Part shown: one piece after another, positions 44,268 through 48,456 of the stretch
Layout: each line of letters opens with the position of its first letter
Numbering within the stretch: position 1 is the stretch's first letter
Assembly: GCA_017510825.1 (NCBI GenBank)
Contig: JAFWMA010000004.1
Location: forward strand, 40,987-104,986
Source: Clostridia bacterium
GTDB lineage: Bacteria; Bacillota; Clostridia; TANB77; CAG-508
DNA length: 64,000 bases
Direction of reading: 5' to 3'
The notes under the pieces: model-generated
What the model saw: only the letters and a program-made list of their open reading frames with translations
Told to the model about the DNA's origin: nothing
The model's database searches: none
Position numbers and translations under genes: made by a program

Positions 44268-47200
44268 TTATTCTTTATCCTTTACTTCTTCTATTATATC
44301 TATTTTTCTAAAATTTTTCATACATTTTCTGTGTCCAATATATATGTATAAAAATAGCAAAATTACAGTAAAAATTATTTCTTTAATACCACTTGCATAT
44401 ACAAACTCTCTTCTAATACTACTTACATATTTTAATATATACTTAGATAACAGTATTCCAGATGGAATACCTATTATTATTGATGTTATCCATTGGATTA
44501 AAGCTTGTACAAACCAGCTTTTAGAAATTTCACTATAGCTAAAGCCTAAACTTCTAAATATTGACAGATTTTTCTTTTGGTCTAATAAGTTGTATGAGTT
44601 TATATTAATAATTATTATGTATCCAATAATTAACGCAAATACTATAATTATTACAGCAGGTATAGTATAAGAGTCAAATATTTCTTTGTTGTATTCTCTT
44701 ATTTCATTATTAAATACAGTATATACATAGTTATTTTTGCTAGATTCTTTATTAATTAATTCATCTTTTTTATCATTATCCATATTTAGTACTATTGTAT
44801 CAAATGATGATTTTAATTTATAAGAATCATCTAAAGATATAAAATTAACTCTTCCTAAACTTTGAAAACTTATATCAACTATTTTAAACTTGACTCCGTT
44901 TATATCTACTTCATCATTTAATTTTAATCCTAAATCATTTGCAATGTGCTCTTCTAGCACAATACCACTTTCTGGGTATGCAATTTCATTATTATCTTTG
45001 TCATATATACTGATATATTTATTCTTGTTGTCTAATGCATTTATAACTATGTCTTGCTCTTTATTATTATTTTTTAATTTTACATTAAAGTATCTTAGTA
45101 AATCTGCATTTTCCACATAATCTAGATTTCTTAATTCATCTACTTCTTCATCAGTTATTGTTCCACTTTTAAATATTTGAGCAGAATAGTGTATTCTATC
45201 ATCAAAATAATTGTTGAATATCTTATTTTTGCTTGCTATATATGCTAATGATGAAAATATTAATGCTACAGTTGCTGATGTGCATATTATTCCTAATATT
45301 AGCTTACTTTTATTTCTTATATATACTAAAATGCTGAACTTTTTAAATGGCTTGAACTTACTAGTAATCCATTTGGTAATTTTTAATGTTTTTCTATTTT
45401 GATATTCTTCGTTTTTTAATATTTCTACTGGTGTAATTTTATCAAGTTCAAATGTTGCAATTATTGTTGCTATTTCAACCACTATTATTGTTGCTATTAT
45501 ACTTAAGATAATTGATAATCCGTTTACTATATATACTACATTTGGTAATAAAAAGAAGTTTTTAAAGTATTCTACCATATATATCATTGGGAATAGTCCT
45601 ATTAAAAATCCCAAAATCAGTCCAACTATTGCTACTATTAAATTGTTGATGCAAAATCCTAGCCTGATTCTGCTTGTTGTTTTTCCAAGCAATCTTAGTA
45701 TTGCTATTTCTTTTTTACCTTGCTTTATCATTAATGATACAAATAAGAATAATATTATTAAAATTATTATATAAAATACTATTGGAACTATTGTTGATAA
45801 TTTGTCCATAACATCAATATTAACTTTAACGTAATTATACATTGGAGATTTTTCGTAAGTATATGAATCTAGTACCTCTATATCTTTTAAATATTTATCA
45901 ATAACATTTTTTAATACCGCTTCTTTATCACTTGCATCATCAACATTTATAAGAATCTCATTAAATTTACTTTCAAGTCCTTTAATGTTTTCTACTTCTG
46001 CTCTTCGGTTATTTAATTCTTGTTTAGCTTCTAATATTTTTCCTTCAAAAGCCTTTCTTGCCTTTTCTAAATCCTCTTCTTTTTTATTGATTAGTGAATA
46101 TGCTGTTTTTAATCCCTCATCTATTTTATCTATGCCTTCGTCAATTTCACCTAGTAATCTCTTTATAATATCTAATGGTCCACCTGTTGTATCATCTGTG
46201 TATTCAGAAAGCTCTGACACTACCGTTTCATTTACTAAATCTTGTACGTAATCAAATACTTTATTTGTAATTATTCTTGCTTTTTCTGTAAGTGATTTAT
46301 TACTGTTATAAATAGAATCTATTTCATTTTTTATTCTCTGTTTTATAGAATCATTTGTATTTACTATTTCCTCAAAATATGGTTGTAACTTTCCTTTATA
46401 TGAATCATATATTAGTGGTAGTAAAGCTCTACTCGAATCCACGAAATTATACAATTCACTGAAACTATTAAATGGAAGTTTTTTACTTACTTTGTGTATT
46501 TCATTTAATGCAACTTTAGCTACTTCGTACACATCAACTATATTATCATCTGTTACTATATCAATTATATTTAGTCTGCTTTTTAATTCATTATATTCTG
46601 ATGTTTCTGTAACATCTTGTCCTTCTTTTATTTTATTTATAAGATCTTCTACTTCATCACTATTAAGGTAATCATAATATGCTTCAGTCATTAATTTTAT
46701 AATATCAGCCATCATTATTTTGTTTTTTAACTTTTTGTTTATTTCATTATCGGGGTCAAATAACTTGTTTAAATTGTTTTCAAATATTGAATAAGCTATA
46801 TCTGTTGCAAATTCCAAATCTTCTATTTTTAAATCTGGATATTTACTCTCTATAAGTTTATCAATATAGTTTTTAGCATTATCTGATAACTTTTCATAAC
46901 TGTTTATATATGAATACACTTTATTTTCTATTTTATTTAAAGAATCTGTTGTCTCTATATATTCCTTTTTTAGTTCTAATAATTTTTCTTTGTTTTGGTT
47001 TAGTTCTTCTTTTTTCTGAGTTGATTCATTCTTTTTTAGATTGTATTCATTTAATGATTTTTTTATTTTGTTTTTAGCATTATTGTATTCATCTAATCTA
47101 TTGTTTTCTTCGTTTTGTAGTTCTTCTTCTTTTTTTTCTATTTCACTTAACAAATCTCTTTTTTTCTGATTTGTATCTTCGTATAAAACTTTTTTGTTTA

Positions 47201-47759
47201 TATATACATTACCGTAATCATTGATACGTACCCACATTCCATTAATAGGTACATTGCCAATTGTTTCTGGTACTGATATTATCTTAGAAACACAAAATTC
47301 ATAGTTTTCTTCGCCCATTTTTAGTTTTAGTGTGTCTCCAAGCTTTATATTGTTATCGTTTGCAAATCTTTTTTCTACCAATACATCATAGTAACCGCTA
47401 TTATTATCTTTCTCTTCATTTATGTAAAAATCCTTTAAATCTTTGTCTTCATAAGTTATTGCTTTAACAGAGAAAATTTGACTGTCTTTGTTTATTATTG
47501 TATTTATAGCAAGTCGATATTCAATACTTTTAAATTTTTCTTTTTTTAAATCACTTATTTTATCTATATCTTCTAAGTTGGTTAAAATTTTAATATCTGG
47601 ATAATTATTTTCTTTTATAAACTTATCTACAGATTTACGAAGTGATAGTACACCATTCATTAATCCAAATAAAAGTGCTACCCCTAAAGAAATAATAATC
47701 ACCATTGATATCAGTATTTTTAAATACTTTTTCCTAATTATTTTAAACTGTAGTCCCAT
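44268..47759 (-). CDS. MacB/FtsX-type ABC transporter permease with a roughly 600-aa coiled-coil extracytoplasmic domain and tandem FtsX bundles
   Basis: The likely start is MGLQFKII, 4 nt after the ATPase stop. The architecture is TM1, a long coiled-coil segment (repeated ...NNRLDEYNNAKNKIKKSL... style heptads), then 2 x FtsX 4-TM domains separated by a second roughly 250-aa loop. Confidence 0.7.
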   Translation of the reverse strand: MGLQFKIIRKKYLKILISMVIIISLGVALLFGLMNGVLSLRKSVDKFIKENNYPDIKILTNLEDIDKISDLKKEKFKSIEYRLAINTIINKDSQIFSVKAITYEDKDLKDFYINEEKDNNSGYYDVLVEKRFANDNNIKLGDTLKLKMGEENYEFCVSKIISVPETIGNVPINGMWVRINDYGNVYINKKVLYEDTNQKKRDLLSEIEKKEEELQNEENNRLDEYNNAKNKIKKSLNEYNLKKNESTQKKEELNQNKEKLLELKKEYIETTDSLNKIENKVYSYINSYEKLSDNAKNYIDKLIESKYPDLKIEDLEFATDIAYSIFENNLNKLFDPDNEINKKLKNKIMMADIIKLMTEAYYDYLNSDEVEDLINKIKEGQDVTETSEYNELKSRLNIIDIVTDDNIVDVYEVAKVALNEIHKVSKKLPFNSFSELYNFVDSSRALLPLIYDSYKGKLQPYFEEIVNTNDSIKQRIKNEIDSIYNSNKSLTEKARIITNKVFDYVQDLVNETVVSELSEYTDDTTGGPLDIIKRLLGEIDEGIDKIDEGLKTAYSLINKKEEDLEKARKAFEGKILEAKQELNNRRAEVENIKGLESKFNEILINVDDASDKEAVLKNVIDKYLKDIEVLDSYTYEKSPMYNYVKVNIDVMDKLSTIVPIVFYIIILIILFLFVSLMIKQGKKEIAILRLLGKTTSRIRLGFCINNLIVAIVGLILGFLIGLFPMIYMVEYFKNFFLLPNVVYIVNGLSIILSIIATIIVVEIATIIATFELDKITPVEILKNEEYQNRKTLKITKWITSKFKPFKKFSILVYIRNKSKLILGIICTSATVALIFSSLAYIASKNKIFNNYFDDRIHYSAQIFKSGTITDEEVDELRNLDYVENADLLRYFNVKLKNNNKEQDIVINALDNKNKYISIYDKDNNEIAYPESGIVLEEHIANDLGLKLNDEVDINGVKFKIVDISFQSLGRVNFISLDDSYKLKSSFDTIVLNMDNDKKDELINKESSKNNYVYTVFNNEIREYNKEIFDSYTIPAVIIIVFALIIGYIIIININSYNLLDQKKNLSIFRSLGFSYSEISKSWFVQALIQWITSIIIGIPSGILLSKYILKYVSSIRREFVYASGIKEIIFTVILLFLYIYIGHRKCMKNFRKIDIIEEVKDKE

Positions 47760-47763
47760 GCTT

Positions 47764-48456
47764 TTACCAATCAAGCTCTCGTACAGATAAAGGATTTTTG
47801 TTCTTTCGTTCATTAATTATTTTTCCATTTTTCATTGTGTAAACTCTATCTGCTATTTTTATAATATCATTGTTATGGGTAACAATAACAATGGTTCTTT
47901 TATCTTTTATTACAAGTTCTTCTAGTAAGCTTAATATTTTTTTACTATTTTCTGAATCTAATGCTCCTGTTGGTTCGTCACAAAACAAAATATCGCAGTC
48001 TTTTGATAAGGCTCTTGCAATTGCAACTCTTTGTTGCTCTCCTCCAGATAATTCTTTTGGATATAAATTCTTTTCTTCATATAATCCAACTTTTCTTAAT
48101 ATTTTATTTATATTTTTCCTTGAATCGCTTGTTAATAATATGTTTTCATATACTGTTAATTCATTAATTAAATTAAATGATTGATAAATAAAACCAACAT
48201 TGTTTCTTCTGTATTGTGTAATTTTTCTTTCGTTATATTTTGTAATATTTTTATTCCTAAAATAAACATTTCCTCTTGTGCATTTATCTATTCCGCCTAA
48301 AATATTTATTAAAGTGCTTTTTCCACTACCTGATGCACCTACAATAACAAGTAATTCTCCTTCATAAATTTGCATTGTAATATTATTCAGTGCATAGTTC
48401 AAATCACGTGTTTTATAAGTTTTAACTAAATTTTCGCATGACAATATTGCATCCAT
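47764..48456 (-). CDS. ABC transporter ATP-binding protein (MacB/LolD-type)
   Basis: GASGSGKST, LSGGEQQRV, ILFCDEPTGALD. RBS AAGGAG. Confidence 0.85.
   Translation of the reverse strand: MDAILSCENLVKTYKTRDLNYALNNITMQIYEGELLVIVGASGSGKSTLINILGGIDKCTRGNVYFRNKNITKYNERKITQYRRNNVGFIYQSFNLINELTVYENILLTSDSRKNINKILRKVGLYEEKNLYPKELSGGEQQRVAIARALSKDCDILFCDEPTGALDSENSKKILSLLEELVIKDKRTIVIVTHNNDIIKIADRVYTMKNGKIINERKNKNPLSVRELDW

Follow-up and report, generated by a model that had tools for sequence, protein, structure and literature searches.

The window, a stretch of 64,000 nucleotides (nt) from contig JAFWMA010000004.1 of a Clostridia bacterium, carries side by side the genes for an ATP-binding cassette (ABC) ATPase, a giant fused permease and an integral membrane protein of the TMEM164/YwaF type. 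These genes are referred to here as the module, or as module 2 where they have to be told apart from a related set elsewhere in the window (module 1). The module genes are real, and all are encoded on the minus strand; the window has a very low G+C content (~25-30%). The best reading of the locus is a three-gene operon in the order ATPase, permease, acyltransferase homologue, and the analysis points towards a machine that handles lipids rather than to a generic efflux pump or an exporter of pilins. The ATPase gene (47764-48456, minus strand; 230 amino acids, aa) was recognized by its open reading frame (ORF), the Pfam ABC_tran domain and its catalytic motifs. It is followed by the permease gene (44268-47759, minus strand; 1163 aa, eight transmembrane, TM, segments) and by the gene for the acyltransferase homologue (43499-44266, minus strand; 255 aa, seven TM segments; identified with TIGR02206 and PF14808). 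The permease ORF is open to an earlier ATG at 47813, its first, which falls within the ATPase gene. The likely start is instead the ATG at 47759, since it is located 4 nt past the ATPase stop and permease homologues align from that methionine. The third gene begins 1 nt past the permease stop, with an AGGA sequence ~12 nt ahead of its start. A preliminary description of this DNA had given the span of the module as 44268-48456, which takes in the ATPase and the permease and leaves out the third gene; its account of the third gene product as a 255-aa protein with seven TM segments agrees with the ORF and its hydropathy.

All the motifs expected of the ATPase are intact: Walker A (GASGSGKS), the signature (LSGG), Walker B (DEP) and the H-loop (THN). 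The protein scored 124 bits on Pfam ABC_tran, and its top NCBIfam models were LolD, a lactococcin-972-group exporter, MacB, DevA and FtsE, all of them below the equivalog cut-offs. Judged from these motifs and family models, it is a MacB/LolD/FtsE-like nucleotide-binding subunit, two copies of which would be expected under one eight-TM permease. The ATPases of modules 1 and 2 are 48% identical. Both end, beyond the ABC domain, in a common tail (…NP[LI]S[VI][RK][EN][LI][DE]W; 47764-47810 in module 2 and 41282-41330 in module 1), which could be a docking element specific to the fused permeases.

The permease is a type VII (MacB/FtsX, ABC3) fused double unit with two MacB-like halves. Pfam detected FtsX twice, first at residues 675-790, and MacB_PCD in the second loop, and hydropathy analysis revealed eight membrane segments in a 1+3/1+3 pattern. 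Together with an AlphaFold2 model built with 23 homologues (predicted local distance difference test score, pLDDT, 73.5), this gives the arrangement TM1, a 625-aa ectodomain, TM2-4, a cytoplasmic linker that is disordered at 777-816, TM5, an ectodomain of ~195 aa and TM6-8. The N-terminal part of ectodomain 1 (residues 51-188; 47196-47609, minus strand) is a beta-rich MacB-like core with strands modelled at a pLDDT of ~85-90; it is completed by residues 591-638, and the insert described below (residues 189-590; 45990-47195, minus strand) separates the two parts. The first FtsX module, TM2-4, spans residues 639-772 (45444-45845, minus strand; Pfam FtsX, PDB profile matches to LolF and LolE). 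Ectodomain 2 (residues 853-1016; 44712-45203, minus strand) is mixed alpha/beta in the model and scored 34.2 bits on MacB_PCD (cut-off 27). The second FtsX module, TM6-8, occupies residues 1017-1150 (44310-44711, minus strand; Pfam FtsX) and matched MacB 5gko over profile positions 1025-1127, which correspond roughly to residue numbers. No profile hit was obtained for the MacB-like core of ectodomain 1, for which the support is the beta-rich core of the model alone. Proteins of the ABC3 group with 4, 8 or 10 TM segments are recognized classes (PMC3654945).

The best Foldseek match of the permease model was Escherichia coli YbbP (9ge6_A, E 7e-16), and next came LolCDE, BceAB, Streptococcus pneumoniae Spr0694-0695, HrtBA, MacB and YtrEF, with E-values in the top range from 1e-16 to 1e-9. 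A profile search of the PDB by sequence produced matches confined to the FtsX modules (LolF, MacB, LolE/C). Pfam, hydropathy and Foldseek therefore bear out the preliminary assignment of the ATPase and the permease to the MacB/FtsX type and of the permease to a double-FtsX plan. The structural comparison with BceB, MacB and YbbP that had been proposed placed YbbP at the top, with BceAB and MacB among the later matches. The second loop, which had been put at 250 aa, is shorter than that, as given above.

Ectodomain 1 carries an insert of ~400 aa that accounts for most of its length. In the model the insert is made of one continuous 100-residue helix (189-289), a head of ~240 aa (~290-527) with about eleven shorter helices, and a 63-residue return helix (528-590); modelled alone, it reached a pLDDT of 79.6. 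A crude heptad scan flagged ~175 residues of the permease, compared with ~377 in the permease of module 1, some 340 of which are in its ectodomain. The preliminary view of about 600 aa of heptad repeats and an extreme coiled coil was thus overstated, and the structure is better described as a hairpin stalk with a helical head. Foldseek found no PDB or BFVD match to the insert model at E<1e-3. As for a known fold of the head, the matches seen were generic coiled coils (dynein stalk, MukB elbow, ClyA), and this candidate assignment was rejected. When 1.84 billion representative proteins were searched with a profile of the insert, only 22 hits were obtained at E<1e-3, mostly members of the same family or fragments of them; the weak tail of the search was coiled-coil noise that included a phage tape-measure protein and apolipoprotein-like repeats. 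The double-FtsX protein P0058 has part of the head in common, and a few other proteins match the first stalk helix alone, at the same insertion site. Among distant homologues the stalk and head are the fastest-evolving part of the protein; their identity is 35-43%, compared with 55-71% in the membrane and core ectodomain regions (55% for residues 51-188). The insert is a lineage-specific accessory.

The 255-aa product of the third gene scored 87.3 bits on TIGR02206 ("TMEM164-related integral membrane acyltransferase"; cut-off 75) and 84 bits on Pfam TMEM164 (PF14808; cut-off 25), and by these family models it is an acyltransferase homologue of the TMEM164/YwaF type (TIGR02206, ATGY superfamily). 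Two of its residues, Cys98 in the motif LPxQxCQW (codon 43973-43975, minus strand) and His155 in the motif FWLEHxLP (codon 43802-43804, minus strand), are the same in all of 18 homologues, whose identity goes down to 43%, and are the candidate catalytic residues. Human TMEM164 is a Cys/His acyltransferase, and YwaF is included in the AIG1/TMEM164/GPC1/YwaF/YpjA superfamily, in which the nucleophile varies and the His is invariant (bioRxiv 10.1101/2022.07.06.498872). Cys98 and His155 match the nucleophile-plus-His dyad of this superfamily, and their equivalence to C123 and H181 of the human protein is putative. A positive-inside count over the alignment of the 18 homologues gave ~14 Lys/Arg residues for loops 1, 3 and 5 plus the C-terminus and 5.6 for the N-terminus plus loops 2, 4 and 6. 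The predicted orientation has the N-terminus outside and the C-terminus inside, with Cys98 at the outer end of TM3 and His155 at that of TM5, and the most conserved loops would also be found at the outer face. An enzyme of the ATGY superfamily, LhaT, is responsible for extracellular N-acetylation of lipoproteins (PMC12345273). In the literature searched there were no described functions for bacterial YwaF/TIGR02206 proteins and no mentions of a pairing with ABC proteins.

The pairing of the ABC genes with the TMEM164 gene is conserved. A TMEM164 gene was found downstream of the permease gene in every module relative examined (L005, L006/L007 and L009, and as fragments in L008). The permease of L005 is 57% identical to that of the module and its gene is overlapped by the TMEM164 gene by 11 nt; in L006/L007 and L009 (48% identity) the two genes are separated by a gap of 1 nt. 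L008, where the permease is 73% identical, has the TMEM164 homologue called as two fragments of 99 and 92 aa (11437-12180 of that locus), with the middle 56 residues, including the region of the candidate catalytic His, in no ORF. This gene may be a pseudogene or the product of an assembly error. In these relatives the TMEM164 homologue is better conserved than the permease (65-82% against 48-73% identity), and among those with a permease identity of 48-57% the upstream neighbours are wholly different while the trio is retained. More distant TMEM164 homologues (46-53% identity) adjoin an ATPase and a giant FtsX permease in the order TMEM164-ATPase-permease; L015, where a GDSL lipase gene is also present, is one of these loci.

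A wider scan of metagenomes with a TMEM164 profile returned 80 loci, 46 of which had enough flanking sequence to be informative, with adjacency defined as a distance within 400 nt. A MacB-type ATPase or an FtsX permease was adjacent in 30 of the 46, in varying gene orders. Ten of the informative loci scored above 300 bits, with 54-84% identity to the protein of the window, and all ten had the permease directly upstream. In a neighbour-joining tree the ABC-linked loci were spread throughout, interleaved with the unlinked ones. Each of the ten linked permeases examined follows the 1+3/1+3 plan; nine of them showed all eight TM segments, and in L014 no TM1 was detected. The length of ectodomain 1 in the linked permeases varies from ~230 aa, with no insert, to ~780 aa. 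The conserved association is therefore with the eight-TM core, and the stalk-and-head insert is accessory to it. The neighbours of the unlinked TMEM164 homologues are unrelated housekeeping-type genes that give no consistent clue. Genes of the DegV (fatty-acid-binding) type were seen near TMEM164 homologues in two unrelated loci, L013 (4015-4977, by Pfam) and L037 (3491-4333, by eye from the N-terminal sequence), a weak hint at a fatty-acid connection. The preliminary description had argued for a dedicated function instead of a generic efflux role. The present results support that part of the claim, for a different reason: the module has a conserved, translationally coupled TMEM164 partner.

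Two observations lead to the proposed function. The relatives keep a TMEM164/YwaF-like gene next to such permeases, and the Cys98-His155 pair of this conserved partner is predicted near the outer leaflet, which makes lipid handling at the outer leaflet the most likely job of the module. From the gene neighbourhood and the predicted structures we propose that one and the same outer-leaflet substrate, lipidic or lipid-anchored, is remodelled by the acyltransferase homologue and extracted or presented by the ABC unit. About half of our confidence goes to this proposal. Type VII systems do their work at the outer face of the membrane, and LolCDE, for example, extracts lipoproteins (PMC12646458, PMC5985334). 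By analogy, the binding and hydrolysis of ATP would power movements at that face and would not transport a substrate across the membrane. By acyl transfer in the outer leaflet, the acyltransferase would produce or remodel a lipid or a lipid-anchored molecule, which the ABC unit would pull out, present or remove as YbbAP-TesA or LolCDE do. The stalk and head would project ~15 nm into the cell wall, the length of the 100-residue helix, and would possibly deliver the cargo outward or contact a partner on the wall side. A more far-reaching version is that the ATPase, the eight-TM permease and the TMEM164/YwaF homologue form one physical complex, a previously undescribed class of envelope machine of Firmicutes. 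Its Cys/His enzyme in the outer leaflet would acylate or re-acylate a lipid, a lipoprotein or a lipid-linked polymer and its motor would pull the product out and pass it along the wall-spanning stalk and head. We offer this version tentatively, as possible and on the whole doubtful.

Several points weigh against the shared-substrate proposal. Gene adjacency is the sole link between the ABC proteins and the TMEM164 homologue, and 16 of the 46 informative TMEM164 loci have no adjacent ABC gene, so the enzyme can work alone. From the side of the permeases, most giant coiled-coil FtsX proteins belong to plain ATPase-plus-permease pairs (the cultured Marvinbryantia, L096; a Bacilli metagenome-assembled genome, MAG, L097; L010; L012), and such pairs sit in unrelated gene contexts. 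The head has no recognizable fold in the PDB and BFVD comparisons and no motif that would indicate a ligand. The predicted topology of the third gene product comes from hydropathy and the positive-inside count, and the cavity modelled for human TMEM164 opens to the cytosol and the bilayer (bioRxiv 10.1101/2022.07.06.498872).

The exact permease is on record as "MAG: FtsX-like permease family protein". Its close relatives (48-100% identity) make up only ~38 clusters, all of them metagenomic, and a scan of 185,579 species-representative genomes (GTDB) found a single locus, in a rumen Erysipelotrichaceae MAG. Permeases of the module-1 type, with a double FtsX and a long helical insert, are represented by more than 2085 clusters at E<=1e-10, one of which includes a 1423-aa protein of the cultured Marvinbryantia formatexigens DSM 14469. 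The architecture, described beforehand as unusual, is accordingly uncharacterized but not rare. The novelty of this locus lies in its TMEM164-type partner and in the lineage-restricted head domain; the fused permease plan itself is common.

Module 1 (36675-42028) is built on the same plan, except that its permease is split and that it has an additional gene for a Condensation domain; module 2 is intact and lacks the Condensation gene, as was first described. The two permeases are 21% identical, in line with the earlier statement that they are divergent copies. The permease of module 1 is split into a 69-aa TM1 peptide (39775-39984) and a 1041-aa remainder (36675-39800), both on the minus strand and overlapping by 26 nt. 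The relative L098 (71% identity) shows the same split (5796-6023 and 6001-9129), with near-identical DNA at the junction (GATATAAA[AG][AG]TTGTATCATCACTTCGG). Many other relatives of this permease at 72-74% identity have been called as proteins of ~1041 aa, and those at 58-63% identity are single ORFs of ~1100 aa. That the split is shared with relatives speaks for either a split gene that has been conserved or a programmed +1 frameshift, and against a sequencing error or a recent pseudogene. The Condensation gene of module 1 (39981-41288) encodes a stand-alone domain of the nonribosomal peptide synthetase type. In L098 an Acyl_transf_3 gene and an AMP-binding enzyme gene then follow (9223-11945), the window itself has an Acyl_transf_3 gene (29580-30731) ~6 kb from module 1, and in L015 a GDSL lipase gene (9117-9698) is located between two FtsX permeases. 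Acyl-transfer enzymes beside giant FtsX permeases may thus be a broader theme than the TMEM164 pairing. A 427-aa protein encoded at 51825-53108 (minus strand) has no family match and contains an HxxxDG-like sequence, SHAIADGRG, that recalls acyltransferases of the condensation and CAT types. Its assignment as a Condensation relative was rejected: pairwise and PDB comparisons were not significant, and the likeness stays at the level of the motif.

A family of paralogues, regarded as pilin-like in the preliminary description, is encoded on the minus strand of the window at 32247-33524, 35200-36165, 42195-43199 and 49233-50507. Its members share a near-identical N-terminal membrane anchor followed by ~30 residues (GITLVALVVTIIVLLILAGV…NNG…YASN.WANATK), and their C-terminal domains are unrelated; in one of them a 54-aa leader precedes the anchor. 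The module had been placed directly downstream of two of these genes (P6 and P7). One member, 49233-50507, is indeed upstream, at a distance of 776 nt and beyond two hairpins, and the other, 42195-43199, is located downstream, 300 nt past the third gene, with a promoter-like site of its own. A GC-rich hairpin (49165-49208, minus strand; dG -24.5 kcal/mol, z -4.95) lies just after the stop of 49233-50507. A second, terminator-like hairpin (48715-48763, minus strand; dG -20.6 kcal/mol, z -5.25) consists of an A-run, a stem and a T-run and is followed by U8. None of 200 shuffled sequences was as stable as the native one in either case. Between the two hairpins there is a 66-aa truncated paralogue (48938-49138, minus strand), a copy of the N-terminal module of the family (…AGITLVALVVTIITLLILAGVTINLALGGNGILEKATYASNTWANVTK…).

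Closer to the module, a consensus scan detected a promoter-like site ahead of the ATPase gene (48553-48582, minus strand; TTGACA, 16-18 nt and a -10-like hexamer), and a GGAG ribosome-binding site was read from the sequence at ~48466-48469 (minus strand). The same scan found the site of the downstream paralogue, an 11-of-12 match (43289-43260, minus strand; TTGACA-18-TAAAAT). Promoter-like sites are no more numerous in this region than in shuffled sequence, so these sites are weak evidence. A (CA)9 repeat (~43303-43322, minus strand) is found just upstream of the latter site and could be a tract for phase variation by slipped-strand mispairing. RNA folding showed no clear terminator after the third gene, and read-through into 42195-43199 is possible. 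Neither Rfam families nor tRNAs were found in the window. A candidate identity as an anti-phage defence system was discarded, since PADLOC returned generic ATPase similarity only.

Other explanations for the module were weighed against the shared-substrate proposal. That it is a dedicated machine for the secretion, assembly or anchoring of the pilin-like paralogues is suggested by their positions: two paralogues and the 66-aa copy flank the module, and two more genes of the family are located just downstream of module 1. The relatives L005-L009, however, have no paralogue N-terminal motif nearby and their upstream neighbours are unrelated, the two strong hairpins stand before the ATPase gene, and the downstream paralogue has its own promoter-like site. 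The paralogues have no Pfam or NCBIfam match, including the prepilin and N_methyl (TIGR02532) models, even at E<=10, and their N-terminus reads G-ITLVAL, with Ala and not Glu at +5. The ORFs scanned between 16 and 64 kb contain no pilus genes of the PilB, PilC and PilD types. On these grounds a type IV prepilin identity of the paralogues was rejected. Because the relatives lack the paralogues, the hairpins intervene and the scanned ORFs hold no pilus machinery, the functional tie to this family that had been claimed is unsupported, and we consider a pilin-related role very improbable.

The module could also be a pump of the BceAB, MacB or YknYZ kind for resistance to peptide antibiotics or other antimicrobials that clears toxic amphiphiles, with the TMEM164 homologue as a bystander or auxiliary. 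Gut and rumen bacteria encounter many membrane-active compounds, the best structural matches include BceAB and MacB, and the ATPase scores well on the lactococcin-972-group exporter and MacB models. Nonetheless, all NCBIfam scores are far under the equivalog cut-offs, the permease has eight TM segments and two ectodomains in place of the ten and one of BceB, and a membrane-fusion (MacA/YknX) gene is absent. In searches for HisKA, HATPase_c and Response_reg, neither a histidine kinase nor a response regulator turned up within 10 kb on either side or in the other ORFs scanned between 16 and 64 kb. Resistance would in addition leave the conserved, translationally coupled acyltransferase homologue unexplained. 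The preliminary description had named BceAB orthology together with a two-component system as an argument that would count against it; neither was found, and the topology is not BceB-like either. An antibiotic-sensing module of the BceAB type was rejected on the topology and the absence of a two-component system from the scanned ORFs, and a resistance pump in the broader sense seems to us unlikely. Less probable still is an FtsEX-like mechanotransmitter, in which the stalk and head would switch an extracellular enzyme such as a cell-wall hydrolase and nothing would be extracted. FtsEX shares the fold and acts through the coiled-coil partners EnvC, PcsB and CwlO, a long helical hairpin could transmit movement, and an SH3_3 protein is encoded near the module in L006 and L007. 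But no hydrolase gene is conserved beside the module, the FtsX models score 22-27 bits against cut-offs of 225-255, and TMEM164-linked permeases of 770-790 aa do without the insert, so the conserved function needs no stalk. The probability left by the shared-substrate proposal and these three rivals belongs to readings that are not listed here.

Two large groups that lack an assigned function, the bacterial TMEM164/YwaF enzymes and the giant fused FtsX permeases of Firmicutes, are tied together by a gene pairing that survives rearrangement, which provides a concrete model for both. Were the one-complex version true, bacterial proteins of the TMEM164 family and thousands of orphan giant FtsX permeases would gain their first function.

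Comparison with known systems sets the module apart from each of them, since its equivalog scores are so far below the cut-offs that it is not an orthologue of YbbAP, LolCDE, BceAB, FtsEX or MacB. The widespread FtsX permeases of Firmicutes (1000-1500 aa) have the same fused eight-TM arrangement and a helical insert at the same site of ectodomain 1. Unlike module 2, these proteins have long canonical heptad coiled coils and are usually found without a TMEM164 gene, and the head region of module 2 is common only to its small family and P0058. BceAB resembles the module in its type VII fold, its fused permease, its separate ATPase and its Firmicute host. BceB, however, has ten TM segments and a single ectodomain between TM7 and TM8 (PMC12646458, PMC5985334), and BceAB works with the adjacent BceRS two-component system, which has no counterpart in the scanned ORFs. 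FtsEX has the same fold, and the module shows neither FtsX orthology nor a conserved hydrolase neighbour. LhaT provides a bacterial case of acyl transfer on the outer face, although it belongs to a different branch (DUF1405) from the third gene product (PMC12345273).

By analogy, the module works most like LolCDE and YbbAP-TesA. LolCDE shares the fold and takes its lipid-anchored cargo out of the outer leaflet, and LolF, LolE and LolC were the best PDB hits by sequence. It is a heterodimer of two four-TM proteins from diderm bacteria that hands its cargo to LolA, whereas the permease described here is fused and its host is apparently an uncultured Firmicute of the gut or rumen, from a Clostridia or Erysipelotrichaceae MAG; this permease reached 46 bits on the lolCE model, whose cut-off is 362. 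YbbAP takes hydrophobic compounds out of the membrane and hands them to the hydrolase TesA, and BceAB, HrtBA, MacB and FtsEX are comparable systems (PMC12646458, PMC5985334). In YbbAP-TesA (PDB 9GE6-9GE8; PMC12646458), as in the module, the MacB-type ATPase is a protein of its own and the permease is a single fused chain that bears two MacB-like ectodomains. The identity between YbbP and the permease is ~8-11% over the aligned residues, and module 2 had no match to the YbbP model NF041854, on which module 1 scored 26.5 bits (cut-off 999). YbbP has ten TM segments, with TM5-6 as a linker pair (PMC12646458), and no helical stalk-and-head insert, while the module permease has eight and a cytoplasmic linker. 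TesA is a soluble SGNH hydrolase, and the partner of the module is an integral membrane protein of the Cys/His TMEM164 type. YbbAP is paired both genetically and functionally with its lipid-active enzyme, and the module is paired with its TMEM164 partner by gene adjacency. The model put forward here would extend the very recent YbbAP-TesA idea to Gram-positive bacteria of the gut and rumen and to an enzyme partner embedded in the membrane.

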